Assembly: GCA_964485475.1 (NCBI GenBank)
Contig: CAZAKB010000002.1
Coordinates: 1 to 59,749, forward strand
Length of the DNA stretch: 59,749 bases
Origin: an uncultured bacterium
GTDB taxonomy: Bacteria; Fidelibacterota; UBA2242
Direction: 5' to 3'
Made by a program: the position numbers and the translations under genes. Positions 715-54,762 of the stretch are shown here, in pieces (position 1 is the stretch's first letter; every line of letters begins with the position of its first letter). Below the pieces are notes generated by a model. That model saw only the letters and a list, made by a program, of their open reading frames with translations, did not search any database and had not been told where the DNA came from.

Positions 715-787
715 GCCCCGATAGCTCAAAGGATAGAGCATCTGCCTTCTAAGCAGAGGGTTGCAGGTTCGAGTCCTGCTCGGGGTA
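715..787 (+). tRNA. tRNA-Arg (anticodon TCT)
   Basis: Manual cloverleaf fold. Acceptor GCCCCGA/TCGGGGT (G1-U72 wobble), D arm GCTC/GAGC, anticodon stem TCTGC/GCAGA with loop CTTCTAA (anticodon TCT), 5-nt variable loop, T arm GCAGG/CCTGC with loop TTCGAGT, discriminator A. No encoded CCA. Confidence 0.9.
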
Positions 788-976
788 CTTAAATGTTTCT
801 CGACGAGAAATTAAAATATCCACTCCCAAAATAACATTCTTCAAAATTCAACCCCAGGTGCTCATTTTGCGTCATAGGGTGTCAGGAGTATCGCGTATAT
901 GGAATTGAATATGCTAGTCCCTAGGCTTATAGCCTGCATGCTAACCAGTTCCGAAGTTAAATCAGTGAATCAGAAT

Positions 977-3754
977 TTATTTCAGTTCTAGTTCAATAGT
1001 TACTATTTTCTTAGCATTAATTTTAATTTCAATCCAGGTTTTATCTAAAATTACTAATTCCGCCAACCTATTTTCCTCCAGATTCACTTGCCAGGCATTC
1101 GCGATTTGCCGCATGCATTCAATCCTTCCGGCTATTGGTTCTGATATCGGATTAAAAACCCGTAAAATCACTGTATCCTGTTTTTCGGCAATTTTCAGCG
1201 CACTGAGAATTAATGTCTCAGGATGAACTCTGAAAAAAGACATCTCCGGCTCGTGGACATTGATACCGGTGGTTATTTGAATTAGCCGAAGTGGAACGTT
1301 GAATTCTCTTGAGGCGAAATACAATTTTGTCTTCTGCCAGTTTCCGGAATGTGGGTAAATGGCATAATCGTATTCAAACTTCCCTTTGCTCTGGCTGCTC
1401 AGGATATAAGGATCATCGGCCCAGGGATTCGCCCCGCCTGCAATCCGCGGATAGCGCACACCATGCAACAGTGTAATCGCGATTGAGCGATCGTCGTCCT
1501 GGGAAATTTCATAATCACGCAAACCCTTATTCAGAATGGCCAATCCCTCTTTACCATCGAACAGATCGACCCAGTTCTGCTGTGGCTGGATTCCAAGTTC
1601 CTTGTCAATCCACTTACTGGAATCCACGGCAAAATCCACCGGCCGGGCAACTGCATCAAACTGACTCTCCGACCACGATTTTTCGACTTTTAATTGTGTC
1701 GGAAAGGCCACTCTTAAGCGATGATCTTCGGCGGATGTATCGACTTCTGTGTGAATTGATACCCACTTGGAATTGAGCGTCAAACGGACATCGGATACAA
1801 TTTCAATTGTCCGTTCCTTTTTCCGACGCCTTTTTTTATTAACCGTTAGGGACACCGGAACCGATAATGTCTGTGTTATACGACAAGTCGCTGCTAGGGT
1901 AGTATTTTCAACCAGGTCTATTTTATCGGCAACGATATCTTGAGTCTGGCAAGTCCGGTCATTTTCAGGACGAATATAATACCAGGGTGTGCCGGCATCG
2001 CCCCCATCTTCAAAAGTATTCTGCCGGGTATACAGCCGGCCGGTTGTTTTGTTGAGAATATTCAGAGATCCGTCAGAATTTATGGTAACTTTTAAAAATT
2101 CGTTTTCCATTGAATGAGCTGCGGTAGCGACTAGACTCTCACTTATCGGCTCGGCTTTATCGGCCGTTACCACCTTAAAGCATTTGAATCCAAACGACGG
2201 TACTGAATCAGCCATGAAAGAAATTTTATAGCGGTGAACAAAAATCGCTGAGTAAGCGGCGTCACCATCTTCATCAACGCCGTATACTTTCTGATAATCC
2301 AAAATTTCATAGGGTATCGATTTGCCCTGAAAATTCTCAATTCGGAAAAACCTCGATCCAGAGGATTGGGAAATATCAAGGAAGGCTTCTACTACTTCGG
2401 TCCGTTCCTGCTGCAGCGTATTGAATACAGTAATGACTTGATAGTTTTGAGAAAAATCCCGTTCAGTTACGGATTCCAGCACACTGAATTCGCTACGGTC
2501 ACTGATTCCATCCGCAATCAGACAGGCTTGTTCCAGTCGGTATGTTGCATCCTTATAAATCTGGTCCACACTGGGTCCGCAGACGGTGTCGTGTCCATGG
2601 TTGGATAAAATAAATTTCCAGACCAGATCGATAAAAGTCCGCGGATATTCCGCGCCCGCCATCCAGGCAAAAACAGCCAACGGCTCGACAATCTTTTCTG
2701 CCAGGATCTGAGCATCATGATTCAACCGTTTAAACGCTGCCTGAGATACCAGGACTCCCTGCATGATGCTGGTCCCATTGGTGTCTACCGCCGGATGCCG
2801 CTGCTCACCTTTTACAACTGGTAATTTCTCCCAATCCACACATTCCCTGACAGCCTGAATAAATGCCGGAAACGAAGAGTGAACCACTTGATCCTGCGGC
2901 CATGTCTCGTTAGCGTCTCGGATAATGTAGCCGGTATTCGGATGTGGATAACTGGCGTCGAAACCATCCATCAGCAGCAGGTGCTTAGTGGTCGCCATCT
3001 TATTGACCCAGGACTTGGCATATTTGAATCCCTCAATGACTTTGTCCGGATGATAGGTATGTGGCTGATTTTTATGCATCAGCTTAAAGCTGGAATGCTC
3101 AGATCCCGGAGTAATATTATGAAATAGAATTTTGCCATCATAAGCATTATCCCCAGTGTACATTGTTTCAGAGAAGACATTAAACCGAAAGTTAAAGCGT
3201 GTAAATTTCACTGGCAATTTGATACCCAGAATTTGAGTGCCGTCGGCCGCTTCAAGCCGGTACTCCGATGATTTCAATCCATGTGCATCTATGCCACGGT
3301 AAAATATGATGCTGTCAACCTCAAACCCGTGATATATCTGCGCCATTTGTGACACCTGCCCATAAGAACAGGGCGTGTACCCGACTTTCATCACCTGCCC
3401 GAATTGTTTTGCAACTTTATGCCCCATCAGCAGGTTCCGGACAATGGCCTCCGCACTGACAATGAAGAAATCCGGTAGCGTGTACCAGGGACCGACAAGG
3501 ATTTTTCCACTTTTAATATGTTTTTCCAGAAGAGCCCGTTTTTCCGGCCGGATTTCAATATAATCTTCCAGCAAAATGGTCTGGGAATCCAGATGGTAAT
3601 GTTTGAAATCCTTTTCTCTCTCACAGATTTCCAGCAGGCGATCCATCATTTCAACTAGATCCATACGCATATGCTGAAAGGGATGCCGCCACTCCCGGTC
3701 CCAGTGGGTATTGGATACGACGTGCAAAACATGCCGGTGAGATTTATTTTTCAT
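977..3754 (-). CDS. GH38 alpha-mannosidase (paralog 1), no signal peptide
   Basis: 925 aa. N-terminal HVVSNTHWDREWRHPFQ motif and later NHGHDTVCG motif are typical of bacterial GH38 (MngB/AMS1-like). No N-terminal hydrophobic leader. Confidence 0.9.
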   Translation of the reverse strand: MKNKSHRHVLHVVSNTHWDREWRHPFQHMRMDLVEMMDRLLEICEREKDFKHYHLDSQTILLEDYIEIRPEKRALLEKHIKSGKILVGPWYTLPDFFIVSAEAIVRNLLMGHKVAKQFGQVMKVGYTPCSYGQVSQMAQIYHGFEVDSIIFYRGIDAHGLKSSEYRLEAADGTQILGIKLPVKFTRFNFRFNVFSETMYTGDNAYDGKILFHNITPGSEHSSFKLMHKNQPHTYHPDKVIEGFKYAKSWVNKMATTKHLLLMDGFDASYPHPNTGYIIRDANETWPQDQVVHSSFPAFIQAVRECVDWEKLPVVKGEQRHPAVDTNGTSIMQGVLVSQAAFKRLNHDAQILAEKIVEPLAVFAWMAGAEYPRTFIDLVWKFILSNHGHDTVCGPSVDQIYKDATYRLEQACLIADGISDRSEFSVLESVTERDFSQNYQVITVFNTLQQERTEVVEAFLDISQSSGSRFFRIENFQGKSIPYEILDYQKVYGVDEDGDAAYSAIFVHRYKISFMADSVPSFGFKCFKVVTADKAEPISESLVATAAHSMENEFLKVTINSDGSLNILNKTTGRLYTRQNTFEDGGDAGTPWYYIRPENDRTCQTQDIVADKIDLVENTTLAATCRITQTLSVPVSLTVNKKRRRKKERTIEIVSDVRLTLNSKWVSIHTEVDTSAEDHRLRVAFPTQLKVEKSWSESQFDAVARPVDFAVDSSKWIDKELGIQPQQNWVDLFDGKEGLAILNKGLRDYEISQDDDRSIAITLLHGVRYPRIAGGANPWADDPYILSSQSKGKFEYDYAIYPHSGNWQKTKLYFASREFNVPLRLIQITTGINVHEPEMSFFRVHPETLILSALKIAEKQDTVILRVFNPISEPIAGRIECMRQIANAWQVNLEENRLAELVILDKTWIEIKINAKKIVTIELELK

Positions 3755-3787
3755 ATTATTCCTTTATATAAAATTGTTATTTGGCGA

Positions 3788-4921
3788 TCATTTTGCCAGT
3801 TGTACTCTGATAAACCTCGGCCGGTATACATCCATTCCCTGACTTGAGATGTCCACATCCACCGGCGCCGTCACATAACTGATAATCAGTTCGCCGGGTT
3901 TCGATGACAATTCCGGATGACATTTGGCTGCGTAAGTCATCGTTTGATGGTCAGGATTCTGATAGATGCAAACAGGTTCAGACCAAGGGCCGGTCAATTG
4001 CGGCGCTACGCTCAGATAAATATATGGTTTTTCGGGAACATAGGTGGTGCAGTAATTGAGTTTCCAGGCAGCGTCGTACTGAATCATTGTTTCTGTGCAT
4101 CCCGGCGCAAACAGTGTGATGGCTCCATTACGCGTTTTGCTCCAAATGTTACCTTTTTGAGATTTTACCCAGTACTCCAGCGTCTCCACCCCACCGCCGG
4201 CAAGAACATCTGTTGCTTTGGCACGGACTAAAATCATGCGGCGGTTTTTCGGATCATCGTTCAAATCATCCAGGGCTATGAAATAAAGCCAGGGTTTTTC
4301 GTACCAGACTGCCGAATGCAGAACAAAATGATCACTGCCAATGTTCATATCAAAATAGCGCAGATTCCATTCCATCGGATCATCATCGGGATTATCGATT
4401 ACAACAGATACCGTGCCCGCCACCCAGCCCTCCGACCAGTCTTTGTTTAATGTCATACAAAATACAATCAACTGATCTCCGATTCGGAGGCCATGTGTCG
4501 GCCAGTAGAATTTCCCCGACGTTCCTTCGTGAAATGGAAAAAACGCAATGTCTTTGTTCTCCTCTTTCCGCCAAAAATATTGAATACTTTGCAAAGGGTG
4601 AACGGTTCTGTCCTGTATGGCAATAGTACTGTTGATGAAAAACCGGTTCGGCACCCGCCGACCTTCTATTATTTCACCCAGGAAGGTATCGCCGAATAGC
4701 CACAGTGTCCGCCGGCCATCCAGTACAATAGAAGTGGCGGCATCTGCGCCCAGCCAGCCGCTGGCATTAGCCTGAAACATCTGATCATAAAGGCTGTCAA
4801 TTTCAACAGAAACCAACCGGACCGGGTAATTTTCGGGCCAGACCGGACATTGCGCCTTTACCAATCCCATTGAAGCAGTTAGCATCGACACCCAGATCAT
4901 CATTTTATTACGAAAAGTCAT
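3788..4921 (-). CDS. Exported DUF4185-like beta-propeller protein (putative glycosidase; the DUF4185 domain underlies CAZy GH183)
   Basis: 377 aa with a signal peptide (MMIWVSMLTASMGLVKAQ). It carries the motif TLWLFGDTFLG and a C-terminal YRPRFIRV motif, both shared with the paralogs at 32511-33626 and 41234-43237. The family call is from memory of the LWxFGDT signature. Confidence 0.55.
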   Translation of the reverse strand: MTFRNKMMIWVSMLTASMGLVKAQCPVWPENYPVRLVSVEIDSLYDQMFQANASGWLGADAATSIVLDGRRTLWLFGDTFLGEIIEGRRVPNRFFINSTIAIQDRTVHPLQSIQYFWRKEENKDIAFFPFHEGTSGKFYWPTHGLRIGDQLIVFCMTLNKDWSEGWVAGTVSVVIDNPDDDPMEWNLRYFDMNIGSDHFVLHSAVWYEKPWLYFIALDDLNDDPKNRRMILVRAKATDVLAGGGVETLEYWVKSQKGNIWSKTRNGAITLFAPGCTETMIQYDAAWKLNYCTTYVPEKPYIYLSVAPQLTGPWSEPVCIYQNPDHQTMTYAAKCHPELSSKPGELIISYVTAPVDVDISSQGMDVYRPRFIRVQLAK

Positions 4922-4941
4922 CTTTTTCCCCTATCATCATT

Positions 4942-7788
4942 TTACCAATGAAACTCGCAGACCGGATGAACTGTGATAAAAACATTGCTAAGTAATCCTG
5001 ATGGATAATTCGCCTTTTCACGCTCATTCGCCATGCTGTTGGCAATACGTAATTTGAGTAAATTGTCTCCGGGAATCAAACAGCCGGTAATAGCCGCATT
5101 ATAAGGCGGCCAGCAGCGCTGTGTCACATACTGTTCATTTAAGCGGATTTCAACACTGTGTCCAACGTTACCAATATGAATGAAAAACCGGTTGTCATTC
5201 GTAAACCAGGCCGAATCCATTCGGAATGTCTGGGTATAGGTTCCGATTCCCGAAAAACCAGGATAATCCTCTGTCCAACTACCTGCCGAGCGAATAGCCG
5301 GCCGGATGGAACTATCCGACGCGCTAAACAGCCATTGGTTCTCCAGGTATACCGTATCCACAATCACATTTTGCCATTGGAAAGCGTATTTCCCATCGAT
5401 ATCCAGGGTTAGGTCAGACCGGCCTGCTGCCAGCGGAGCTGCTGTAGTAACGACTTTTTTCTGGGATACAGAAATATTTTCAATCTGCCAATCGCCGGTT
5501 ATCGGATGAATATTCGGCCCAGGTCCACGGTGAAACACAACGCACTGGGAACCGTAACGGTCCAGCTTCAATGGCATGATTGTATAGCCCTTTTCCCGGC
5601 GATAGGCGACCAGGGTTCGGATTTGCCCGTTTTCCGGATTCCAGATTTCAGGCACGCCGGTATTTCTGAAGGAAATTTCGTTGGTAACTGGCAGAGAATC
5701 GTTGTTGGTGACAAAATAAATATCCAGCCCGGCCTTCCGTTTATGAATAAAATTAACTGCAGCCGTTTCTTTATTCAGCCGAATGTCCTGCTTCAGGTTT
5801 AGCTGTAGCAAATGATTCAATTCACAAGATAATCCAGTTATTTGAAAAGCCTTTCCTGATTTATCGGGATCGCCAGCCCATTCACTATTCCAGATGACCT
5901 CCGTATCCTCAAAAACAAACTTCCCTGCAGTATTCCAGATTGGCAAATTTCCGATTGCGATCACCGTTCCTCCGGTCAGGTAAAATTCCCTGATGACGTC
6001 CAGTGTCGCCTGATCTACTACCGTAACATACGGCAGAATCATCAGTTCATAATCTGACTGAACCACCCGATGATTGAGATTTAAAACGGCTTTCCCATTT
6101 TCTGTGCTGATGCGCATCTTTTGCTGCAACGTTACGTCATTCACAATATCATAGTCCCACTGCCAGGCAAGCAATTGTTCGCACAGTTTTTGAAAATTGC
6201 TGTCCAGCGTACTTACTGCAGTCTCATCAATTGGATTAAGCAAAAACCTGGCAGATTTATCAGGATACAGCACTGCGATTTTAGCCACATGCTGACCGCC
6301 GGAAAGCAGAAAGGACAACCGGGAGGTATAGTCGGTGTAGGTTTTCAGAAACGGCCAATAATTGGTTCCGATAAACAGGGACGGTGCAATCTCCATCCGC
6401 CAGTTCCGCTGATTTTCAAAATAAAAGGAACTCAGCATCAGATGATTGACACCCCGGGCAAACAGCCAGTCGGTTACGGCTTTCATCTTCTCAATTGTGG
6501 TAGACCAGCCGTAAGCGCCGAACACTTCACAGAAAAGGTCATGAGTGCCGAAACTGCGGGCGGCCGAGCTGGCGATTTTGGGCGTAATGGCTTTTGGGTT
6601 CCAATGGTATACCGCATCGGCACCCTGGATATGAGAATATTCCATGGCGCTGAAGTAGTCGCCCTGCATAATGGCTGAATATTTTAATTCCTCCTCGTGA
6701 GCAGGCTGGATGTTCAGCTGAATCTGGTGGTCTTCAGCCCAGTCATGCAGTGGTTTAAAATAGGAGTCCTGAAGCAATTCCGCTACCACCTGATAATAAT
6801 CATTACGTACTTTGATTGATTCCGCGCCAAGATTATGCCAGAGGGCTGGCAGATAATCAGCCAGATCATACTGTTTCCGTTTTCGAAACTCATCAGAAAA
6901 TCCTGGCGTCCAGGCAATGGTCTCAGGATTGATTCCCCAGGGTTTCAGGTTTTGGTAGACACCCGGCTCGTCGGTAATGATGCTGGTAATTACATTACCG
7001 AAGTATTCCGGCATTTTGGCATAATAGCGCGCGTGGTTAATTTTGATAAATTCAGCAGCTGTCCTCGGATCCAGCAAATCAACATAATACATCTCGGAAA
7101 AGACCGGTCGAAAATCACCGGCTTTCACTTCATAGGAAAGAATCTCCCACTCGCCTTCCGGAACCTGCCAGTCAAGACTGTGATAACTTATCTGATTACT
7201 GAGATTTGTCAATTTAGTATAAACCGACTGACCATTCACAATTGGCACAGCAAATATTGAGGCCGATTCTTCATTTACAGTCGTGGTAAAACGATCAGGA
7301 CCTGTAATCGACTGGCGGTTTTCCGACAAACACTTACTACGAAGTTCCGGGTGATTTTTCAGCATTATACCACCGGCATGACCGCTAGGCCAGCACCATT
7401 CATCATATAGACAAATCTTCAACCCGACTTCTGCTGCAATATCACAGGCGTATTTGACCTGATCAAACCATTCATCGGATAAAAATTCTATGGTCAATCC
7501 TTCCCACGCTAGCAGGACAACAGTACTTACGGTATGGCTGCGCTTCATCTCTTCCAGTTGGAACCGTATTTGTGTTGAATCAATATCGCCATTCCAGAAC
7601 CAGTAGACCCAAGGTCTGTACTCCTCAGGCGGATTGGCAAAGGCTTGCTGCAATTCGGTATATTGACGGTTTGATGAACAATTCATCACAAGCAACGAGA
7701 TGGCAAACATTGCGGTAAAAATACAGAATCCGGGCTTTTTGAGTCCTTCTGAATTGCTAAATAAATTAATAAATTGCCTCATATTCAT
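4942..7788 (-). CDS. Exported glycoside hydrolase-like protein (GH106-like N-terminal signature, C-terminal galactose-binding-like jelly roll)
   Basis: The start is moved to ATG 7788 (MNMRQF...), because the longer ORF overlaps the divergent gene at 7868. A hydrophobic leader ends in LLVMNCSS. PPEEYRPWVYWFWNG is the signature seen in GH106 and related large hydrolases. The family assignment is tentative. Confidence 0.55.
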   Translation of the reverse strand: MNMRQFINLFSNSEGLKKPGFCIFTAMFAISLLVMNCSSNRQYTELQQAFANPPEEYRPWVYWFWNGDIDSTQIRFQLEEMKRSHTVSTVVLLAWEGLTIEFLSDEWFDQVKYACDIAAEVGLKICLYDEWCWPSGHAGGIMLKNHPELRSKCLSENRQSITGPDRFTTTVNEESASIFAVPIVNGQSVYTKLTNLSNQISYHSLDWQVPEGEWEILSYEVKAGDFRPVFSEMYYVDLLDPRTAAEFIKINHARYYAKMPEYFGNVITSIITDEPGVYQNLKPWGINPETIAWTPGFSDEFRKRKQYDLADYLPALWHNLGAESIKVRNDYYQVVAELLQDSYFKPLHDWAEDHQIQLNIQPAHEEELKYSAIMQGDYFSAMEYSHIQGADAVYHWNPKAITPKIASSAARSFGTHDLFCEVFGAYGWSTTIEKMKAVTDWLFARGVNHLMLSSFYFENQRNWRMEIAPSLFIGTNYWPFLKTYTDYTSRLSFLLSGGQHVAKIAVLYPDKSARFLLNPIDETAVSTLDSNFQKLCEQLLAWQWDYDIVNDVTLQQKMRISTENGKAVLNLNHRVVQSDYELMILPYVTVVDQATLDVIREFYLTGGTVIAIGNLPIWNTAGKFVFEDTEVIWNSEWAGDPDKSGKAFQITGLSCELNHLLQLNLKQDIRLNKETAAVNFIHKRKAGLDIYFVTNNDSLPVTNEISFRNTGVPEIWNPENGQIRTLVAYRREKGYTIMPLKLDRYGSQCVVFHRGPGPNIHPITGDWQIENISVSQKKVVTTAAPLAAGRSDLTLDIDGKYAFQWQNVIVDTVYLENQWLFSASDSSIRPAIRSAGSWTEDYPGFSGIGTYTQTFRMDSAWFTNDNRFFIHIGNVGHSVEIRLNEQYVTQRCWPPYNAAITGCLIPGDNLLKLRIANSMANEREKANYPSGLLSNVFITVHPVCEFHW

Positions 7789-7807
7789 AAAGTCATTTGA
7801 TGACTTT
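7789..7807. promoter_or_regulatory. Perfect inverted repeat AAAGTCA-TTTGA-TGACTTT, candidate GntR/FadR-type operator
   Basis: 7-nt perfect arms with a GT...AC core, in the divergent spacer between 4942-7788(-) and 7868-9004(+). The 17-mer ATTCATAAAGTCATTTG (7783-7799) recurs exactly at 50118-50134, upstream of the GntR gene. Confidence 0.45.
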
Positions 7808-7867
7808 GGATGCAAATTAATATATATTATAAGCCGATAAAGGTGCAAGGAAAAACACGAGAAACTA

Positions 7868-9004: not shown

Positions 9005-9005
9005 T

Positions 9006-10127: not shown

Positions 10128-10350
10128 AGATATTCCTTCCGGTAAAGTTCACATTTGTTAATAAGAATCTGCATATCATGAAGGAAATTTATAACAAAAT
10201 TCAGAAAATGAAATGAATATTCAATAACGAACATGAATAGTCTAATAAAGTTGGCTAGTAAGAATAACATATTTAATAGAAATGATTTTATTTAAATTTC
10301 ACCGCTTATTTAATATTATCATGTTTTTAAATAGATAAACCAAAATATTC

Positions 10351-11049
10351 ATGAATGACTTTCAAAAAAAATTGCATTGTTTTTTATTAATAGGCCAATC
10401 CAATATGGCCGGACGAGGAGAACAGTCAGAGGTCGATCCAATTTGTGATGACCGTATATTTATGTTCAGAGATAGGTATTGGCAAGTAGCAGTTGAGCCG
10501 CTTCATCAGGATCGCCCGGAGGCTGGAATTGGCCTGGCGATGGGTTTTGCATCGACATTGTTAAAACACCTCCCCGATATTTCAGTTGGCCTGATTCCCT
10601 GTGCTGTCGGAGCTACGTCAATATCCGAATGGATACCTGGCGCGCTATTATATCAGCGTGCAATTGATTCAGTACGAATAGCGTCATGTTCACTTCACGG
10701 AATCCTTTGGCATCAGGGCGAATACGACGCAAATATTCAAGAACGAGTTGACCAATACGCAAAACATCTGACTTTTTTGATCGAGTCCATTCGCTTCGAT
10801 TTAAATTCACCACAATTGCCATTTATTGCCGGAGAACTTGGATCATTTATTAATGCCGAAAGCGGATTTCCATTCGGCAGAAAAATTTCCAGAATTATTA
10901 AATCACTGGAAAAAAGCATTCCAAATTTTGCCTGTGTATCTGCTGATAATTTAACCGATAAAGGTGATAGTCTGCATTTCAATTCCAGTGCACTGCGGAA
11001 ATTTGGAAAGCGATATGCAACAGAACTATTACGATTAGAGAACAAATAG
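10351..11049 (+). CDS. Cytoplasmic SGNH-type O-acetylesterase-like protein (DUF303/SASA family)
   Basis: 232 aa. LLIGQSNMAGRG motif near the N-terminus and no leader peptide. Confidence 0.7.
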   Translation: MNDFQKKLHCFLLIGQSNMAGRGEQSEVDPICDDRIFMFRDRYWQVAVEPLHQDRPEAGIGLAMGFASTLLKHLPDISVGLIPCAVGATSISEWIPGALLYQRAIDSVRIASCSLHGILWHQGEYDANIQERVDQYAKHLTFLIESIRFDLNSPQLPFIAGELGSFINAESGFPFGRKISRIIKSLEKSIPNFACVSADNLTDKGDSLHFNSSALRKFGKRYATELLRLENK

Positions 11050-11057
11050 GATTTCCG

Positions 11058-12758: not shown

Positions 12759-12804
12759 CGATTCAAAATCCTGGACTATTACAGATAATTATTCAGCGGA
12801 TTTT

Positions 12805-31468: not shown

Positions 31469-31479
31469 TTGGCTTTCAC

Positions 31480-46105: not shown

Positions 46106-49100
46106 TTAACGAAAATTGTATTTAATTCCAAAGTAAATCCGGCGGGCCGGTGCATAGGTTTGAGCGGTGATATCGTAACCAACTTCATCCACTTTCGGAA
46201 TCGTACCATTGTCGATATAATCGCTGAGTATATTATCACTTTCATTATAGTAAATATTGCCCAGGGAAATCATATTCTTGGCATTAAATACATTGGTAAT
46301 TCGAATATAGGCTGAGAGGATATGATTCTTACCGATTTCAATATTTTTCACCAATCGCAAATCCACGTTATTGAAGGCGGGATAGCGGTAATTATCATAA
46401 GTGTCCGGTGAATCATCGGGTCCTTGATACGTAAAGGGTTGCCCACTGATATACTGATGTAAAATACTGAGACTGGTTCCCTTTAATACCGGTGTAAGCA
46501 ATGGAATTTTCAGATCATCCGGATATCTCAGGTAAATATTCGTCCGGACAGTATGGGGACGACTGTAGGAATTCTGAACCGGGATGCGCTTGTTGATATC
46601 CGTATCCCATACGTAGGTATAGTTACCTTCACCATCGATCTTAATTTGCCCGGGACTGGCTCTTCCGATTGTTGATTTGGAAAAACTATAGTTTATATCC
46701 AGGGTAAATACCCGCGAAAATAATGTTCTCAACGTTATTTCAAATCCCCGGGCATCTCCATAATCACCCGGGAAGCTGCTGACGTAAAAAAGGTTGGGGG
46801 TCGTTTGTGAATTTATCGGATCCCATCCGTAGATACGCCGATCGAAAATGCCGTACCGGGCCGCGGTTTTATTAAACGCATCTTTATAAAAGGCGGTCAC
46901 ATCCAGAACGGCCACATCATTAAAATTTTGTTTGATTCCCACCTCAAAGGAAATCGTCTTTTCCGGTTTGAGCGGTTCCGCAGTCAAAAACACAATTCGT
47001 TCCGGATCGCCGTTATCGGAAGGAAAATGATTCGGTTCCCGCCCCTGGGCTGCCGCAGAATCCATTTCAGTCATGATTCCCTGAATGATCTTTTCAGGTC
47101 GAAAATAGCTGAGTTCAAACATCCGATCAAGGGGCGGCATCTGGTAAAAATGCCCGTAATTGAAGTGCAACAACGTATTTTCAGTAATCGGAAAGGATAC
47201 TCCCAATCTCGGACTAAACATATGATAGGACGGTGCTTGCTCCATGGGTTGATTCATAACATTTTCAAAGGAATATTTCACATTTCCCGAAGAATCCAGC
47301 TGATCGCCATCCGGGTCAAGAGCAGGATTAAAATCAGAATTTAAACTGTAATTATACAGGTTATTTGTCGAAAACCATTCACGGTTTGGATTAAAGTAAT
47401 CATAGCGCATTCCAACATTCAAAATCATACTCTCAAATTCCATTTTATTTTGAGCATATAGGGCAATCTGGATTGGATTGAAGGTATCATGCAGGCCCCG
47501 GTTCATCCATAATTCAGGATTGGACTTATAGTCAATATAGGACGGATATCGATAGGCCTTAAGTTCAGACATCGTATTATAGCGGAATTCAAAACCGGTT
47601 TTCAGAAAATTAAACGAATTCCACTGCCAGTTCAGACTCCCCAACCACGATAGATCACTGTTCTTCCAATGATTGTCCAGAACAAACGCCCAAGCGTCAA
47701 ACGGTTCCACAAAATATTCTTCATCGCTAAAATTGACCACCGTGTTGTATCGCTGAAATCCCCAAATATCGGGCATATCACTCTGGCCGATTTCAGTATA
47801 ATCGCTTGGTTTTTCACGGATATCGGTCAGATAGTAGCTCAGCTTTAAATCATAAAATAATTTTTGAGATAATACATGACTCCATAACAGACTGTTGCTG
47901 TAGGTATAGGTATCCAACAATGTGCCCCACCCGCGATAATATTTGGCCTGAGGTACAAATTGCCCATATTCCTGCCAGGTTGAGTGCCCTTCATGGTTAT
48001 AAAAACCGGTAAACCGCAATTTCGCTCGGGAGTCCGACTGAAACGCAATGTTGTAGGTGATATTTTCCTGGTCGTGAGTATCCCTGGGGCGCGGATATAT
48101 ATAGGCCTCTTTTTTAATTTGTGTTGCCACAAAAAATGAACTTCTAATATCTCCAATGTGAAACAGTGGACCACCAAGGCTGAAAAAAATATTTTGATCC
48201 GGTATTTTCCGATAATCATAGATATTTTTTTGCCGGTATGAAGTCATCCAATCTGGATCAATAACACCAATATCGGCCGTCGTATCCCGGTAGTTGTAAT
48301 AATTTTGGTCCCACCAAACTGCTGAAGGAGCATTGATATGATCCCGATACTCTTTCTGATATTTGCTCCACCACTGATTATCGATATCTGTCATAGACTC
48401 AATATGTGCAAGGGAATCTTCGGCAGATGGAATTTGAGTTCCCCAGGCAGACTGCCAGTTGGCGTGCTCATTATCTAATATTTCCCAATGATTCCGGACT
48501 TGAGTCTCGGTCGGGTGACTGTACATATAATTTCCGAAATGATGCTGGCCAGCAGTTCCGTAAATGTATTCAAACGAGAATGAATATTTTTCACCCCCCT
48601 CCCGTGTAATCACATTTACAATTCCGGACTGGGCTTCGCCGTACTCCGCATTAAAACCGGAAGTGATTAACTGTACTTCACTGATCGAGTGCATATTTAC
48701 ATCTGTAAATGAACCACCCTGGTCCGCTCGGCCTTCCATCAAAGATGAAGACCGGACACCATCTATAAACCATTTAACTTCACCCTGACTTCCACCCCGG
48801 ATTGAGTACCGGGGTTCTCCCCGGCCCTGTCCATTAAACCCGGAACTCAACGGCAATGGATCCATAAAAATACCGGTCTGAATCATCAACCCTTCTTTTG
48901 CATCGGCTACCGGCAACTGGGTGAGTTCTTCAAGCTCAACAAACTGGGTACTGTTGGTGATATCCTTCTGTATCACCGGACGCGTCGCGGTTACCACAAC
49001 TTCCTGGCCCATGTCAATCGCCTTAGATTCCAAATCCATATTAACTGTTGTCGTATGATCAATATTGACTTTGACATCCTTGACCATCACCTTGCCGTAG

Positions 49101-49354
49101 CCAATCATTGACACATGCAGTGTATATGTGCCGGGAGGAATCGACAAAATAAAATACCGTCCGTCGATATCAGTAGCGGCGCCAAACATTTGCCCTTCGA
49201 CCAGAACATTTGCCCCGACCAGAGCTTCCCCAATATTCTTGTCACGAACCAGTCCTGTGATTTTTCCAGTTTCTCCAGCAAATACCGTCATCGAACTGTA
49301 CAAAACCATCAAAAAAACAAAATCGAGAAGGCATTCAATCTTTCGTTTACTCAT
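46106..49354 (-). CDS. TonB-dependent receptor with N-terminal carboxypeptidase-regulatory-like domain (SusC-like, no SusD partner)
   Basis: 1082 aa. GKITGLVRDKNIGEALVGANVLVEG...DIDGRYFILSIPPGTYTL is the CarbopepD_reg-like domain. A plug region follows, and the C-terminus ends in a terminal aromatic residue (KYNFR region). Confidence 0.9.
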   Translation of the reverse strand: MSKRKIECLLDFVFLMVLYSSMTVFAGETGKITGLVRDKNIGEALVGANVLVEGQMFGAATDIDGRYFILSIPPGTYTLHVSMIGYGKVMVKDVKVNIDHTTTVNMDLESKAIDMGQEVVVTATRPVIQKDITNSTQFVELEELTQLPVADAKEGLMIQTGIFMDPLPLSSGFNGQGRGEPRYSIRGGSQGEVKWFIDGVRSSSLMEGRADQGGSFTDVNMHSISEVQLITSGFNAEYGEAQSGIVNVITREGGEKYSFSFEYIYGTAGQHHFGNYMYSHPTETQVRNHWEILDNEHANWQSAWGTQIPSAEDSLAHIESMTDIDNQWWSKYQKEYRDHINAPSAVWWDQNYYNYRDTTADIGVIDPDWMTSYRQKNIYDYRKIPDQNIFFSLGGPLFHIGDIRSSFFVATQIKKEAYIYPRPRDTHDQENITYNIAFQSDSRAKLRFTGFYNHEGHSTWQEYGQFVPQAKYYRGWGTLLDTYTYSNSLLWSHVLSQKLFYDLKLSYYLTDIREKPSDYTEIGQSDMPDIWGFQRYNTVVNFSDEEYFVEPFDAWAFVLDNHWKNSDLSWLGSLNWQWNSFNFLKTGFEFRYNTMSELKAYRYPSYIDYKSNPELWMNRGLHDTFNPIQIALYAQNKMEFESMILNVGMRYDYFNPNREWFSTNNLYNYSLNSDFNPALDPDGDQLDSSGNVKYSFENVMNQPMEQAPSYHMFSPRLGVSFPITENTLLHFNYGHFYQMPPLDRMFELSYFRPEKIIQGIMTEMDSAAAQGREPNHFPSDNGDPERIVFLTAEPLKPEKTISFEVGIKQNFNDVAVLDVTAFYKDAFNKTAARYGIFDRRIYGWDPINSQTTPNLFYVSSFPGDYGDARGFEITLRTLFSRVFTLDINYSFSKSTIGRASPGQIKIDGEGNYTYVWDTDINKRIPVQNSYSRPHTVRTNIYLRYPDDLKIPLLTPVLKGTSLSILHQYISGQPFTYQGPDDSPDTYDNYRYPAFNNVDLRLVKNIEIGKNHILSAYIRITNVFNAKNMISLGNIYYNESDNILSDYIDNGTIPKVDEVGYDITAQTYAPARRIYFGIKYNFR

Positions 49355-49396
49355 AAAATTACCCCTTTATCACCACACTAAACTCATTTTCAATAA

Positions 49397-50107
49397 CTAT
49401 TCTTCATCCGGGAAATAATTAATGATGATATCCCGGATGCGCTTTAACCGGGTTTCCATCAGTTCAATTGCTCTCTCCTTGTCCTTCTTTTTTAATGCCT
49501 CGTACAAATCGGAATGGGTCTGATAATCTTCCTGGCAGGCCATATGTTTATTGATCAGCTGAATCTGATCGTCAGTATATAAATTTGTAATGACTCGAAC
49601 AATCTCGTTAATTATAATATTTTTTGCGGCTTTCCGAATCATATAATGAAATTCCAGGTAATCCAGACCACATTCATTAAAGTTATCCAGATGGAGTTTC
49701 GCGTCGTCCAGCAGACCTTTCATCTTCAGGAACTCACACTGGGTCATATTGTTGATAGCCAGAGATACGATCATGCCCTCCATCGCAATTCTTGCGTCGA
49801 TCAGTTCCAGTAATATCTTTTTTGATAATGGTTGAGCGGTAGTAATCGGGTTCGGCAGAAACAGGGTATTGAAGTAACGTCCGACAAAAATCCCGGAACC
49901 GTGTTTAATCACAATCGAGCCGATGGTTTCAAGCTTCTTTATTGCTTCCCGCAGGGTTGGCAAACCGACTCCGAAAAATTTGGCGAGTTCTGCTGTTGAA
50001 GGCAGGCGATCACCCCGTTTTAAATCATTTCTGACAATAAATGCCCGAATCTCCTCGGCCAGATGATCTGAGAGAGAACGTTTGTTTATGGGAGTAATGT
50101 CATTCAT
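49397..50107 (-). CDS. GntR-family transcriptional regulator (FadR/FCD subfamily)
   Basis: 236 aa. The winged-HTH N-terminus (GDRLPSTAELAKFFGVGLPTLREAIKKLE) is followed by an all-helical FCD-like C-terminal domain. Confidence 0.9.
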   Translation of the reverse strand: MNDITPINKRSLSDHLAEEIRAFIVRNDLKRGDRLPSTAELAKFFGVGLPTLREAIKKLETIGSIVIKHGSGIFVGRYFNTLFLPNPITTAQPLSKKILLELIDARIAMEGMIVSLAINNMTQCEFLKMKGLLDDAKLHLDNFNECGLDYLEFHYMIRKAAKNIIINEIVRVITNLYTDDQIQLINKHMACQEDYQTHSDLYEALKKKDKERAIELMETRLKRIRDIIINYFPDEE

Positions 50108-50123
50108 AATTATTCCAATTCAT

Positions 50124-50142
50124 AAAGTCATTTGTTGATTTT
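50124..50142. promoter_or_regulatory. Second copy of the candidate operator (AAAGTCA-TTTGT-TGATTTT), upstream of the GntR gene and in the divergent spacer to the URO-D operon
   Basis: 6 of 7 arm positions are palindromic. The flanking 17-mer ATTCATAAAGTCATTTG is identical to 7783-7799. A further palindrome, ACTTTCAAAGT, lies at 50146-50156. Confidence 0.45.
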
Positions 50143-50412
50143 ATAACTTTCAAAGTATAAATTAATTTCCAACAAGTTTCAAGATAAAAATGTATTTTTA
50201 AAATCAGAATCAGCGCACCAAAATTTTAGCAAGGTGATTTCATTCGAAAATCCATTAACAGTCGCCAACGCATCAAAGCCATTATCAACCATCAAGCAAC
50301 CGATCGCAGCGGTTTCTGGCTTGGTAATCCGCATGCCGATACTTGGCCGATTTTTCACCGCTATTTCAAGACCGATTCTGAAGAAAATTTACGTGTAAAA
50401 ATTGGTGATGAT

Positions 50413-51261
50413 GTGCGCTGGATTTGCCCCCAGTTACAGCTTGGTTTTTACCGTGCCCCCGATGGAAAGGGTTTGTTTAATAATTACTCTGCAAAGGATG
50501 GAAAACACCCTCTCGCCGACTGTGAAACCATTGGAGAATTAGAGAACTTCAGCTGGCCCAATCCTGATTATCTTTACTTTAATGATACCATTGACATCCT
50601 TCGGAATACCGGTAACATTTACCGTTTAAGCGGGATGTGGACTTCCTTCTATCATGATCTTATGTTTTTATTTGGAATGGATAACTATCTCATTAAAATG
50701 TACACTCATCCCGAAGTAGTCGAGAGAGCCACTCAATATGTTTGTGAATTCTATTTTGAAGCCAACCGGATCTTTTTTGAACAGGCCGGAGATTTAGTTG
50801 ACGGTTATTTCTTCGGGAACGATTTCGGAACCCAGCAGGATTTGATAATGAGTCCGGATCTTTTCGATAAATTTATCATGCCCTGGTTTCGTCGTTTTAC
50901 AGATCAGGGTCATTCATACGGATACCAGGTCATCCTGCATTCTTGCGGTGCCATTTACAAAGTTATTGAACGATTAATTGATGCGGGTGTGGATTGTCTG
51001 CATCCCCTTCAGGCAAAGGCATGCAATATGAATGCTGAAACCCTGGCCCGTGATTTCAAAAATAAAATCGCTTTTATGGGTGGTATTGATACCCAGGATT
51101 TGCTGGTTAACGCTTCTCCTGAAGAGATTAAAAAGGATGTTCGTCGAGTAAAATCTCTGCTGGGCCCAAACCTTATCATCAGCCCCAGCCACGAAGCCCT
51201 GTTACCTAACATTCCACCAGAGAATGTTCAGGCCATGATTGAGGCAGCATTTGAAAAATAA
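50413..51261 (+). CDS. URO-D/MtaA-like protein, paralog D (H-S-C-G); conserved N-terminal coding sequence continues upstream to 50230 without a canonical start
   Basis: The only canonical start is GTG 50413. The same frame stays open from 50230 and encodes SRQRIKAIINHQATDRSGFWLGNP, which is homologous to the N-termini of the other paralogs. VILHSCGAIYKVIERLIDAGVDCLHPLQ is present. Confidence 0.7.
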   Translation: MRWICPQLQLGFYRAPDGKGLFNNYSAKDGKHPLADCETIGELENFSWPNPDYLYFNDTIDILRNTGNIYRLSGMWTSFYHDLMFLFGMDNYLIKMYTHPEVVERATQYVCEFYFEANRIFFEQAGDLVDGYFFGNDFGTQQDLIMSPDLFDKFIMPWFRRFTDQGHSYGYQVILHSCGAIYKVIERLIDAGVDCLHPLQAKACNMNAETLARDFKNKIAFMGGIDTQDLLVNASPEEIKKDVRRVKSLLGPNLIISPSHEALLPNIPPENVQAMIEAAFEK

Positions 51262-51288
51262 TTTACAACCGGTTAATTGGAGAATTGG

Positions 51289-52389
51289 ATGACATCCCGA
51301 GAACGATTATTAACTGCCCTTTCCAATGAAAAACCCGACCACCTGCCCTGCCAGGTACACAGTTGGATGCCCTATTATCTGAAAACCTACTTGGACGGCC
51401 GGGATCAGTTTGGAGCTTATGAATTTTTCAAGGGAATGGATTGGGTCATCTACGCCAATCCCCGGTTCATCTATAATGATACGGACCACGGTGTCTGGAA
51501 AAAACGGGATATCGATCTGGGAACTGATAGCGATGGTTCGCATCAGTTCCGGCATATCATCACAACCCCGGAAGGGGAATTGAGCTACGGACTGGGCTGG
51601 AACCAGTTCACCGCCTGGGTCACCAAGCATCTGATCGAAACGGAACGGGATTTCGATCTCTGGCAAAAATATGTCCCACTCCCGGAAAAAGTCGACTGGA
51701 CGCCACTAATCGAAATAAAAAAACGCATTGGTGATAGGGGCATTGTGCGGGGGGAATTTTTCGGCTTTGGGCAGGGCAGCCCCTGGCAGGACTTTTGTTA
51801 TATGTTCGGCACAGAGCTGGCGATTTATGCCGCTTATGACCGGCCCAATTGGGTTCACCACGTCTTAAACACCCTCCTGGAGAAAAAAATCAGTGTGATT
51901 GAGCGCGCCGGAACTTTTGAAATGGATATGGTCGAAACCGGGGGTGGGGCTGGATCGTCAACGGTAATCAGTCCCTCTATGCACCGGGAATTCTGTCTGC
52001 CTTACGATCGGATCCAAATCAACGCGTTGCACAACGCCGGAACCCGGGTGGTGTATCACCTCTGCGGCGGACTAATGCCACTCCTGGAAACAATCGTCGA
52101 AAACGGCACTGACGGCCTCGAAACGATGACACCGCTTTCAATGGGAGGTGATTGCAACCTGGCGGAAGCCAATCAGCGGGTTGGGAATAAATTATTTTTT
52201 ATCGGCGGTTTTGATCAGAACGCCGGTTTTGAAAAAGGTGATGCCGAAACCACGGCAAAATTGGTTCGGGAATGTCATCAGGCCTGCCCCGACGGTGGCT
52301 ATATTTGCAGCCCCTCGGATCACTTTTTCAGTGGTGATCCGGCCAATGTGCAGGCATTCGTGGATGAAGCCAATCGTTGTCATTATTAA
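51289..52389 (+). CDS. URO-D/MtaA-like protein, paralog E (H-L-C-G)
   Basis: ATG 51289 is preceded by GGAG with 6-nt spacing (the ORF track begins at TTG 51277). It has SRERLLTALSNEKPDHLP and VVYHLCGGLMPLLETIVENGTDGLE. Confidence 0.8.
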   Translation: MTSRERLLTALSNEKPDHLPCQVHSWMPYYLKTYLDGRDQFGAYEFFKGMDWVIYANPRFIYNDTDHGVWKKRDIDLGTDSDGSHQFRHIITTPEGELSYGLGWNQFTAWVTKHLIETERDFDLWQKYVPLPEKVDWTPLIEIKKRIGDRGIVRGEFFGFGQGSPWQDFCYMFGTELAIYAAYDRPNWVHHVLNTLLEKKISVIERAGTFEMDMVETGGGAGSSTVISPSMHREFCLPYDRIQINALHNAGTRVVYHLCGGLMPLLETIVENGTDGLETMTPLSMGGDCNLAEANQRVGNKLFFIGGFDQNAGFEKGDAETTAKLVRECHQACPDGGYICSPSDHFFSGDPANVQAFVDEANRCHY

Positions 52390-52400
52390 CACCTAAAGCA

Positions 52401-53495
52401 ATGGACACCCACATGCTTGACACTATCCCGATCCATCACCCAAATCCCGATAATCAAGCCTTCATTGCGCACCTCATGGGCCAAAAGCCACTGACCGCTG
52501 CACCCCTGGTGGAATACAATATCGATGATTCGCATATCCAACGAATCACAACGGAGATATTCAATCGTCCCTGGATTCCCTGGAGCAGAACACGGAGTGA
52601 TCAGCAATCTTGTCTGGATAATTTTATCCAGATCTGGTACCGCCTGGGTTACGATTTCGTCCGCTTTGAGCGCAGTCTGAGATTTGATGAAAAACGTGTT
52701 ATTGGTAAGGAACGCAGTTGGGTGGATCAGCAAAAGGGTGCTATTCAAAACTGGCAGGATTTTGAACAATATCAATGGCCCAAAGTCAGTGAATTTGATT
52801 TCTCTTCCTATGAATACATTAACAATAATCTCCCTAATGGCATGGGCTTTATTGTGTCCCATGCCGGGGGTGTATTTGAACATCTGTCTCAGATTATGTC
52901 CTTTGAAGGGCTGTGCTACGCCCTGGTGGATCAGCGTGATCTGGTGGAAGCAATTGTTGAAAAACTCGGAACATTAACAACGGAATTCTATTCTCAAATC
53001 CTGGACCTTGACCATGTTATTGCCTTGTGGCCGGGTGATGATATGGGTTATCATAGCGGAACAATGATTTCCCCTGCTGATTTGGGGCAGCTTATTCTTC
53101 CCTGGCATAAAATTTTTGCCCGGATGGCTCACAAACGTGGATTGCCTTATTTCTTGCATTCCTGTGGCAATTTAACAGATATTATGGATACGTTGATAGC
53201 TGATGTAATGATCGACGGCAAACATTCCTTTGAGGACTCAATTATACCGGTGGAAGATTTTCACAAGCAGTATGGAAAAAGGATCGCGGTTCTGGGAGGT
53301 GTTGACGTCAACATCCTGGCGTCTGGTACACCGGAAGAGGTTCGAGCCCGCACCCGGGATCTGATTGAAAAATGCGATCTCATTGGAAGGTTCGGAATTG
53401 GCTCCGGCAATTCAATTCCGGATTACGTCCCTCTTAATAATTATTTGGCAATGATCGATGAAAGACATAAAGTAGCCCATGCAGGAAAACATTAA
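52401..53495 (+). CDS. URO-D/MtaA-like protein, paralog F (H-S-C-G)
   Basis: ATG 52401 (the track begins at TTG 52377, overlapping the previous stop). It has YFLHSCGNLTDIMDTLIADVMIDGKHSFE and RIAVLGGVDVN. Confidence 0.8.
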   Translation: MDTHMLDTIPIHHPNPDNQAFIAHLMGQKPLTAAPLVEYNIDDSHIQRITTEIFNRPWIPWSRTRSDQQSCLDNFIQIWYRLGYDFVRFERSLRFDEKRVIGKERSWVDQQKGAIQNWQDFEQYQWPKVSEFDFSSYEYINNNLPNGMGFIVSHAGGVFEHLSQIMSFEGLCYALVDQRDLVEAIVEKLGTLTTEFYSQILDLDHVIALWPGDDMGYHSGTMISPADLGQLILPWHKIFARMAHKRGLPYFLHSCGNLTDIMDTLIADVMIDGKHSFEDSIIPVEDFHKQYGKRIAVLGGVDVNILASGTPEEVRARTRDLIEKCDLIGRFGIGSGNSIPDYVPLNNYLAMIDERHKVAHAGKH

Positions 53496-53510
53496 CTAAA
53501 TGAGGAAATC

Positions 53511-54614
53511 GTGGCAACTGTCGAACTGAAAAATTTAACAAAGATTTATGGCAAGGACACACAGGTCATTAAAGACCTTGATTTGGCTATTAAAGACGGG
53601 GAATTCCTGGTATTGGTCGGCCCTTCCGGTTGTGGCAAAAGCACTACTCTACGTATGATTGCCGGTTTGGAAGAGGTTACTGCAGGCGAGATTTTTATAG
53701 ACGACCGTAAAGTCAATGATGTCCCACCCAAAGACCGTGATATTGCCATGGTTTTCCAGAACTATGCCCTTTACCCCCATATGACTGTATTTGATAATAT
53801 GGCTTTTGGACTAAAACTGCGCAAATTCCCAAAAAATGAAATACTAGCCCGCGTTCAGGAAGCCGCCGAAATTTTGGAAATCAATGATCTGTTGAAGCGA
53901 AAACCCAAGCAGCTGTCCGGCGGCCAGCGCCAGCGGGTGGCTTTGGGACGCTCCATCGTGCGTCAACCTAAGGTCTTTTTATTCGACGAGCCGCTCTCCA
54001 ATCTGGATGCGAAACTGCGAGTCCAGATGCGCACGGAAATCAAAAAACTGCATAAGCAGCTGAAAACGACAAAAGTTTTCGTGACCCATGACCAGGTAGA
54101 GGCCATGACCATGGGCGACCGCATCGCTGTCATGAAAGATGGGATCATTCACCAACTGGACACACCTTTGAATATTTACAACGAACCTGCCGATCTTTTT
54201 GTGGCAAGTTTTATCGGCAGCCCGGCCATGAATTTTATTACAACCACTGTCAATAATGAAAATATACTCTGCTCGGATGCTGCTAAATTTTTTTTCCCTG
54301 TTCCAAAAAAATATCTGTCCCAGATGAAGGATCAGACAAGTGAAGAAATTATAGTCGGCATTCGTCCCAATGATTTTACTATTAACCAGGAATCAAATGA
54401 GGATTATACATTCAACGCGTCACTCGAACTGGTGGAACCACTTGGGAATGAAACCATTCTTTACCTGTCGACCGGTTCCCAAGGTCTGACCTGTATCAGT
54501 AAACAATATAATCCTCAAAGTGCTGACGAAAACCAGGTAAGACTCTATATCAATCCAGAAAAAATTCATTTATTCAACAGATCTACTACAAAGCGACTAA
54601 TTCCCAAAAACTGA
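53511..54614 (+). CDS. ABC sugar transporter ATP-binding protein (MalK/UgpC/MsiK-like)
   Basis: 367 aa with a GTG start. Walker A is GPSGCGKST, the signature is LSGGQRQR, Walker B is VFLFDEPLS, and there is a C-terminal TOBE-like regulatory domain. Confidence 0.9.
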   Translation: MATVELKNLTKIYGKDTQVIKDLDLAIKDGEFLVLVGPSGCGKSTTLRMIAGLEEVTAGEIFIDDRKVNDVPPKDRDIAMVFQNYALYPHMTVFDNMAFGLKLRKFPKNEILARVQEAAEILEINDLLKRKPKQLSGGQRQRVALGRSIVRQPKVFLFDEPLSNLDAKLRVQMRTEIKKLHKQLKTTKVFVTHDQVEAMTMGDRIAVMKDGIIHQLDTPLNIYNEPADLFVASFIGSPAMNFITTTVNNENILCSDAAKFFFPVPKKYLSQMKDQTSEEIIVGIRPNDFTINQESNEDYTFNASLELVEPLGNETILYLSTGSQGLTCISKQYNPQSADENQVRLYINPEKIHLFNRSTTKRLIPKN

Positions 54615-54695
54615 ATATATGTGAATTGTTTAATAAGTTGATCAATTCGTATACGACATATTCGGATTTTCATTTATTGAAGACAAACCATATTG

Positions 54696-54762
54696 CTTCT
54701 AAGCAGAGGGTTGCAGGTTCTTCCACAGGAACTCCCCTGGAGGAGTCCTGCTCGGGGGTACA
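54696..54762 (+). repeat. Broken 3'-half copy of tRNA-Arg(TCT): an att-like direct repeat of the tRNA at 715-787
   Basis: 54696-54720 (cttctaagcagagggttgcaggttc) is identical to the tRNA from the anticodon loop into the T arm. A 22-nt unrelated insert follows at 54721-54742. Then 54743-54762 (gagtcctgctcgggggtac) matches the tRNA 3' end with one extra G. There is no 5' half or D arm upstream. Confidence 0.8.

Follow-up and report, generated by a model that had tools for sequence, protein, structure and literature searches.

Genomic islands reportedly settle in tRNA genes by means of tyrosine integrases, with the anticodon loop as a sublocation of the insertion site. Blocks that lack recombination genes of their own are represented by the cis-mobilizable elements (CIMEs) among the accretion-mobilization elements of Streptococcus thermophilus (ICESt1 family), and by the integrative mobile elements exploiting Xer recombination (IMEX) and the dif modules, such as the gonococcal genetic island and the pdif modules of Acinetobacter, which use the host recombinases XerC and XerD. 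Here we analyze a stretch of 59,749 nucleotides (nt), hereafter the window, from an uncultured bacterium (GTDB lineage Bacteria; Fidelibacterota; UBA2242; assembly GCA_964485475.1, contig CAZAKB010000002.1), in which a complete tRNA-Arg(TCT) gene and a broken copy of its 3' half enclose about 54 kilobases (kb) of carbohydrate genes. A sequence-only reading of the window had taken the two for attachment scars (attL and attR), either of the whole locus as one integrated island or of a smaller element since deleted. We give about an even chance to another explanation, namely that an old cargo block lies within a recombination scaffold derived from tRNA-Arg, which was opened at a palindrome by a recombinase acting in trans.

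Two described systems resemble the small hairpins that we found inside the broken tRNA copy and the genes that accompany them. The Ssn proteins are single-domain GIY-YIG nucleases of single-stranded DNA associated with SRM/NTS hairpin repeats, in a paper that makes no mention of tRNA (Chenal et al. 2025, PMC11893778). SegB of phage T4 is a free-standing GIY-YIG homing endonuclease encoded in a tRNA gene cluster (PMC2330249; PMC13096335).

Architecture of the locus

In the text below, G000 is the genome of the window, other G numbers (G001, G005, and so on) are its relatives, C numbers are contigs, of G000 unless a relative is named, and L numbers are loci. The open reading frame (ORF) content of 977 to 54614 was judged by Pfam scans of 39 ORFs. 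The parts of the locus are as follows.

715 to 787, plus strand: intact tRNA-Arg(TCT) gene (ARAGORN, 715 to 788; Rfam, 715 to 787, 72 bits)
789 to 894, plus strand: left spacer arm, D, which starts with the hairpin TTTCTCGACGAGAAA (796 to 810) and ends ...GTATCGC beside the palindrome remnant (85% identity to C3:54819-54929)
895 to 899, plus strand: probable left remnant, GTATA, of the palindrome GTATACGAYGTATAC, with about 10 nt lost compared to C3, C26, and G014 (D-side alignment, judged from the intact copies)
977 to 54614, strand not assigned: cargo of about 39 genes for the use of carbohydrates, mannosides and others (Pfam scans; PF00589 search)
54649 to 54663, plus strand: right-hand palindrome copy, GTATACGACATATTC, with slight decay (pattern search and alignments)
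54664 to 54695, plus strand: proximal part of the right spacer arm, RE, GGATTTTCATTTATTGAAGACAAACCATATTG, abutting the anticodon loop of the fragment (copies elsewhere 86 to 91% identical)
54696 to 54720, plus strand: first part of the tRNA-Arg 3' half, with the anticodon loop, the 3' strand of the anticodon stem, the variable loop, the 5' strand of the T stem, and TTC (25 of 25 nt identical to 746 to 770)
54721 to 54742, plus strand: double mini-hairpin insert (TTCC-aca-GGAA and CTCC-cct-GGAG) between T-loop positions 56 and 57 (R1 covariance model, 54708 to 54761, 65.8 bits)
54743 to 54761, plus strand: second part of the tRNA-Arg 3' half, with the remaining T loop, the 3' strand of the T stem, the 3' strand of the acceptor stem, and one extra G (sequence comparison with the tRNA)

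ARAGORN detected a single tRNA in the whole window, and Rfam at gathering thresholds returned nothing but tRNA matches for the window and ten loci. Both programs confirm the tRNA-Arg(TCT) that the sequence-only reading had placed at 715 to 787. The broken copy also has the form described there. Its first part is an exact repeat that runs from the anticodon loop to C56 of the T loop, its second part, which we place at 54743 to 54761, matches 18 of 18 nt of the tRNA with one G added, and the whole lies on the same strand as the tRNA-Arg with no 5' half ahead of it. By our own calculation, about 1e-6 25-mer repeats would be expected by chance in 59.7 kb. The repeat is not due to chance, and its reading as a landmark related to recombination is supported.

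In one of the two earlier readings the repeats would be the attL and attR crossover points of a single 54-kb island, but they are not the exact edge of the inserted DNA, with conserved spacer sequence of about 105 nt at the left (D) and 47 nt at the right (RE with its palindrome, 54649 to 54695) lying inside them. The cargo meets both parts of this spacer at a shared 15-nt palindrome, GTATACGAYGTATAC, which is the end of D and the start of RE. On C10, at 2262 to 2410, the spacer is unopened: the proximal part of D, a single palindrome, RE, and 12 nt of tRNA-Arg core are contiguous, with no cargo. Since D ends and RE begins with the same palindrome and the two are joined by a single copy on C10, the geometry fits one spacer opened at the palindrome and not two opposite arms of a phage-type attachment site (attP).

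We propose that the tRNA-Arg and its 3' half tagged with the double hairpin were once joined by one conserved spacer, that this spacer was opened at the palindrome, and that the 53.7 kb of carbohydrate genes would sit in the opening. Site-specific recombination at the palindrome would have placed the block there, with the recombinase probably encoded outside the block and acting in trans. The insertion would be old, and the interior would have gained and lost large pieces afterwards.

The tRNA-Arg of the window is a second copy, and the native gene stands in a tRNA-Pro/tRNA-Arg cluster on C250. This contig carries tRNA-Pro(TGG), a 75-nt spacer, and the first 52 nt of tRNA-Arg(TCT), and its end overlaps window positions 712 to 766 by 55 nt. 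Because its upstream flank is that of the relatives, the native gene lies elsewhere than the window, and because C250 ends inside the tRNA with this overlap, the assembly graph branches there. Such a branch, in a metagenome-assembled genome of 352 contigs, would agree with a contig wrongly joined across repeated tRNA and arm sequences. We nevertheless consider an assembly artifact very improbable, given that in an independent assembly a single contig (G005:C45) unites hsdR and a pseudo-tRNA with these glycan genes and another (G005:C32) has GntR, the right arm, and uxaE, and that the arm copies differ by 10 to 20%, which is enough for unique k-mers.

Recurrence of the spacer arms and the palindrome

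The D arm recurs to the right of tRNA-Arg cores on C3, at two places on C26, and on G014:C41. Copies of RE were found on C3, C26, C7, C10, G005:C219, G006:C81, G006:C235, G006:C211, G014:C41, and G015:C20. RE, core, and D form one junction on C3 and at one end of C26, while on C7 and C10 RE is followed by only about 12 nt of core. The genes that we scanned beside the arms encode carbohydrate enzymes, sugar transporters, or two-component regulators, and the scaffold borders other carbohydrate blocks, both here and among relatives that represent two genera or more.

On G014:C41, the native tRNA-Pro and tRNA-Arg are followed by a 95-nt mini-insert, D, the palindrome, and 21.6 kb of cargo, and then by the same perfect 15-mer, RE, and a decayed tagged core. 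The 21.6-kb block is flanked by a perfect 15-nt direct copy of the palindrome, ATATACGACGTATAC, and part of its gene order matches that of the block on C26 of our genome.

A classic tRNA island would account for part of this picture. A tyrosine integrase would have crossed over in the anticodon loop of tRNA-Arg and its gene would later have been lost, leaving a CIME-like, cis-mobilizable remnant in which the arms would correspond to P and P' of attP, with the palindromes as arm-type binding sites. We regard this as possible but doubtful. The RE-core-D junctions on C3 and C26 do resemble attP or the joints of tandem elements, the RE copies with about 12 nt of core on C7, C10, and G005:C219 resemble secondary sites, and the way in which flanks meet across the core differs between G006 and G000. 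The identity of the fragment to the tRNA starts exactly at the anticodon loop, flanked by inverted stem strands, and a partial integrase ORF lies 640 nt to the right of the C7 copy, at the end of that contig. This ORF is the lone exception in our genome, and no integrase (PF00589) was found on any arm-bearing contig of 30 relatives, nor does any of the seven PF00589 matches of the genome fall in the window. Furthermore, both arms are joined via a single palindrome in the C10 unit, which is unexpected for attP arms split by an element, the tRNA of the window is not the native gene, and, as described below, the bracket is common to a congener and the composition is host-like.

Several points weigh against a spacer opened at the palindrome as well. 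Only the single unopened spacer on C10 was found, with its core reduced to 12 nt, and the left palindrome of the window has decayed to a half-site. The palindrome has a central T in the left-type copies of this genome and a central C in the right-type ones. Searches with PF00589 over the genome and 30 relatives tied no recombinase to the palindrome, and all the genomes are fragmented assemblies broken at these repeats, from which the order of the array is not readable. The start of the fragment identity at the anticodon loop and the cores of about 12 nt on C7 and C10 fit a classic anticodon-loop crossover too.

The palindrome was also considered as an operator of GntR, which was rejected as the placement of the arms with respect to promoters varies. 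A palindrome-like match on C8 is inside a coding region and was taken as chance.

Other sequences adjoin these parts. The mini-insert of G014:C41 (L224, about 22700 to 22800) is hairpin rich, lies directly 3' of the tRNA-Arg, and has at its borders 11 nt duplicated from the 3' end of the tRNA, GCTCGGGGTAC. A stretch of about 60 nt, ACnAACCGnnTTCAnGACGGAGGAnCnTCTAACCTTAGAGCAGAGGCT, stands directly beside the palindrome at C26:25790-25857, C58:16310-16383, and C1:33960-34029; two of these three sites directly follow genes for proteins sorted by the type IX secretion system, and on C58 the other side is an IS66 transposase. To the right of tRNA-Arg cores on G017:C194, G005:C181, G005:C192, G015:C20, and G006:C81 we observed another element family, whose flank ...CTGACTATCAACAAnATACAG... 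looks like a putative site for integration host factor and whose member in G017 has an integrase fragment 280 nt from the tRNA. With this second family at its cores, tRNA-Arg(TCT) is a multi-user hotspot in this order.

Age and interior of the locus

The contigs of the congener G005 show that the bracket from hsdR to uxaE, with the right arm, is common to both genomes. G005:C45 carries hsdR (87% nucleotide identity), an AAA ATPase, Fic, and a pseudo-tRNA with a decayed hairpin insert, followed by genes collinear with window positions 3785 to 15300. G005:C32 carries the equivalents of 16223 to 16588 and of 48928 to 50210 (the GntR side), a broken ISL3, a stretch like the right arm with 7 to 8 nt of core, as read by eye, and uxaE. 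The congener lacks window positions 16.6 to 48.9 kb (about 32 kb) and 50.4 to 54.7 kb (about 4.4 kb).

The same locus was found at another site in G006, much reduced and between other neighbors. G006:C235 has a C3-type flank, RE with its core, and the equivalents of window positions 979 to 1654 and 31340 to 32938, and continues with RE, a decayed core, and a C6-type flank, so that a 2.7-kb remnant is left between different neighbors. The interior is a mosaic, in which large pieces appear to have since been gained and lost. No empty spacer beyond the unopened one on C10 was found in the relatives. In G001 a tagged fragment lies about 50 nt downstream of tRNA-Arg(TCT), but the flanks are others and this is no true empty site.

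The composition of the window was compared with that of the genome. In GC and tetranucleotide distance, every 5-kb window fell between the 11th and 88th percentiles of the genomic background, so that the signature of an island was not seen and there is no sign of a recent foreign origin of the locus. Together with the bracket shared with G005, the second-copy tRNA, and the 32 kb and 4.4 kb of interior absent from the congener, this argues against the earlier proposal that the whole locus had arrived as one island. The alternative offered with it, a scar of a smaller element since deleted, comes close to the nature of the fragment.

Among the 39 cargo ORFs, 37 had Pfam matches of carbohydrate or regulator type and two had no match. 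The families comprise GH38 (four genes), GH106, DUF4185 (three genes), and GH13-like/alpha-amylase. They are accompanied by SASA esterases, six URO-D-like genes, ROK and PfkB kinases, an ABC sugar transporter, a TonB-dependent receptor, a GntR regulator, and a MalK-like ATPase. The scans of these ORFs gave no domain of an integrase, a transposase, a conjugation system, or a phage, and the absence of mobility genes between the two tRNA copies, stated in the sequence-only reading, holds with both the Pfam scans and the PF00589 search.

The six URO-D-like genes (PF01208) are spread over 16529 to 17770, 20533 to 21549, 30494 to 31468, and 50413 to 53495, an unusual enrichment for a carbohydrate cluster. 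To the right of the locus, 56151 to 56927 holds an 88-codon gene remnant (56316 to 56582, minus strand) and a small GC-rich hairpin repeat (about 56580 to 56612), whose surroundings of about 46 nt recur in G004, G005, G007, and G008 with about 89% identity. The decay reported for this region is therefore a fair description, but no tie to the junction emerged. To the left, pieces of the intergenic region between hsdR and the tRNA (418 to 704) recur in G005:C37 and G004:C152 with 72 to 97% identity, and in G005:C37 another hairpin-tagged tRNA-like piece follows.

The hairpin-tagged tRNA halves

The 22-nt insert of the broken copy had been described as foreign. It is instead a conserved, covarying double hairpin found family-wide (24 of 29 genomes), made of two mini-hairpins of the form YYYC-N3-GRRR (TTCC-N3-GGAA and CTCC-N3-GGAG in the window). 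A search for other copies, as had been suggested, gave an identical 22-mer on C26, where it splits the T loop of a second tRNA-Arg 3' half at the same position, a variant inside a different tRNA-like 3' half on C59, and a further variant on C218. In relatives the arrangement is kept with different loops (G013) or different stems (G001, TCCC/GGGA and CCTC/GAGG).

Covariance models built on the T arm and insert (A1 and R1) had matches in 27 of the 42 genomes of the order, and in the family there were up to 16 matches per genome, often in tandem. Across 32 matches, 98.8% of the cells were paired, with changes on both sides in nine of 13 pairs (one pair being UA in 18 and CG in 14), compared to 46 to 73% paired cells in slid controls with the partner shifted by one to three columns; these figures are generous, as the model guided the alignment and the sequences share ancestry, but the unaligned rows themselves still show the compensatory changes plainly. 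Hairpin 2 contains seven U-G cells, which would be A-C mismatches on the opposite strand. Because U-G pairs are tolerated on one strand only, it is the tRNA-sense strand that forms the structure, either as RNA or as single-stranded DNA.

Other structures were considered and rejected. A single long hairpin is the minimum-energy fold of the window copy, at a z score of -0.7, which is not significant, and pairs 94% of the cells across the family versus 98.8% for two hairpins. Removal of the insert restored a tRNA recognized by ARAGORN in only one of 40 contexts, the tRNA-Ser of L108, so that functional tRNAs do not in general carry it as an intron. An archaeal-type bulge-helix-bulge intron was dropped because its geometry is a different one.

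A scan of public genomes with the pattern TTCCNNNGGAACTCCNNNGGAG gave many chance matches, of which about 280 would be expected in 596 Gb by our own calculation, and only matches in a T-loop context were used. These came from records of Bacteroidia, Ignavibacteria, and Neomarinimicrobiota. Our literature search found no published description of T-loop hairpin inserts. The double hairpin is a compact, strongly covarying structured element that occurs at many tRNA genes.

We surveyed the context of 41 tagged copies, which were best scoring or chosen by pattern and are no random sample. An intact tRNA stood on the same strand 20 to 330 nt upstream in 27 of the 41, these tRNAs including Ser, Lys, Asp, Met, Gly, Cys, Leu, Pro, and Arg, and a GIY-YIG ORF was present within 900 nt in 15 of the 41. 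In some cases the small GIY-YIG gene separates the tRNA from its tagged copy. In our genome, matches to the GIY-YIG domain (PF01541) are confined to C59, C148, C164, C11, and C34, with none in the window. On these comparisons, the fragment of the window appears to be a family-typical, hairpin-tagged "retired" copy of the tRNA-Arg(TCT) 3' half, although it stands 53.9 kb from its parent on the same strand, where less than 330 nt is typical of the tagged family. Tagged halves of this kind resemble attR scars and will mislead island finders that rely on matching a tRNA to a partial copy far away.

Two loci illustrate the association with GIY-YIG genes. On the minus strand of C59 (L004, 18176 to 18677), a GIY-YIG gene, a plain tRNA-like 3' fragment, a second GIY-YIG gene, and the same fragment in tagged form follow one another, and hairpin 2 of the tagged fragment (CTTT/GGAG) pairs only via U-G wobbles. 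L108, a record of Candidatus Neomarinimicrobiota (DAOTJS010000007.1, 870 to 2200, minus strand), has two tandem units, each a full-length tRNA-Ser(CGA) with a T-loop insert directly followed by an 84-codon GIY-YIG ORF, and then a tRNA-Ser that is intact and a further tagged fragment. A GIY-YIG protein of the relative G037 is 100% identical to that of L108 over 84 amino acids, and on this one protein the lineage of the window is probably Neomarinimicrobiota.

The family also bears on whether any site-specific event took place at all. The broken copy could be a local duplication made by a small hairpin/GIY-YIG cassette, with the carbohydrate genes accrued by rearrangement and by homologous recombination between spacer copies, and the palindrome could be regulatory or a terminator. 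The best-scoring tagged fragments indeed usually have an intact tRNA no more than 330 nt away, the length and identity of the arms (50 to 150 nt, 80 to 95% identical) suffice for homologous exchange, and the 32-kb and 4.4-kb differences from G005, the ISL3 at the G005 junction, and the host-like composition all agree with such an origin. We think this explanation unlikely, since the cargo edges coincide with the palindrome at at least five junctions in two genera, including the perfect 15-nt direct repeat of G014, and since the arms have no fixed orientation to the neighboring genes, so that a promoter or terminator role is inconsistent. Should an ordinary reading hold, the locus would serve as a useful caution and as a modest addition to known tRNA-linked genome plasticity.

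Further hairpin inserts were observed in other settings. At L192 (G011:C7) and L198 (G010:C66), at about 1501 to 1579, a second insert of 21 to 25 nt is nested in hairpin 1, and to judge from these nested T-loop inserts it looks as if the element can land in itself. The 22-mer TTCCAAAGGAACTCCTTYGGAG lies in the loop of a dispersed hairpin repeat of Pedobacter, cgtcatttcgaccgtagtg[...]gagaaatg (L065, L079, L086, L095, L097, L112, L124, L125, L129, L135, and L136); these matches of the public scan were kept as a side note, and they show that the 22-mer is not restricted to T loops. On C218 (L005, 2129 to 2150), the double hairpin has two mismatches and no recognizable tRNA context and lies directly upstream of a gene for an AbrB/VapB-like antitoxin. 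A VapBC-like pair adjoins the tRNA-Ser locus of L108.

Comparison with known systems

The fragment family shares with the Ssn system small hairpin repeats that travel with GIY-YIG genes of about 84 to 94 amino acids, and the strand-specific pairing of the T-loop hairpins would fit a single-stranded target. Unlike in that system, the window has no GIY-YIG gene. The SRM pattern (HGTCWY...RNCYNB) had no match in window positions 54600 to 54800 or 700 to 960 or in C59 18100 to 18677, and its 11 matches genome-wide are at chance level (7 to 13 in shuffles). The resemblance to SegB lies in a GIY-YIG gene beside tRNA genes with tandem amplification, as in L108; SegB is a phage gene without a T-loop hairpin, and it bears only on the fragment family, not on the 54-kb block.

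As in tRNA islands, an intact tRNA and a same-strand 3' copy bracket tens of kilobases and the identity runs from the anticodon loop. The direct repeat is therefore shared with such islands, whereas an integrase of its own, an atypical composition, and an empty site were not found here. The locus further differs in the spacer inside the repeats, in edges that lie at a separate palindrome, in a bracket conserved in a congener, and in a tRNA that is a second copy.

The likeness to CIMEs is that a block flanked by attachment-type repeats has no recombination or transfer genes, as is the case in the window, and was possibly moved by an enzyme from elsewhere. A related autonomous element with a cognate integrase at the same site was not found in 30 relatives, with only the partial ORF at the end of C7 nearby. 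Unlike in CIMEs, several blocks share one scaffold, and the cargo is ordinary carbohydrate metabolism.

IMEX and dif modules are likewise large integrase-less blocks bounded by short, partly palindromic sites, and recombinases of XerC/D size (297 and 301 amino acids) are present in every genome searched. In our genome, genes of this size lie on C23 and C343, and integrases on C7, C314, and C38. The palindrome of the window, with 21 nt and one central base, contrasts with the 11-6-11 arrangement of dif, any likeness to dif would be putative, and the sites lie in a scaffold derived from a tRNA and not at the terminus. One may speculate that carbohydrate loci of 2.7 to 54 kb are integrase-less cassettes swapped at the 15- to 21-nt palindrome in an array derived from tRNA-Arg, with the recombinase elsewhere, for example one of the host Xer type, a proposal that we consider quite unlikely as it stands. 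If the palindrome scaffold were such a swap site, it would explain how glycan-degradation loci are reshuffled without an integrase per island in uncultured marine and sediment bacteria. The array would then be an integron-like or IMEX-like platform for modules of the size of polysaccharide loci in this lineage, and a third kind of integrase-less module beside the Xer-dependent IMEX and the pdif modules.

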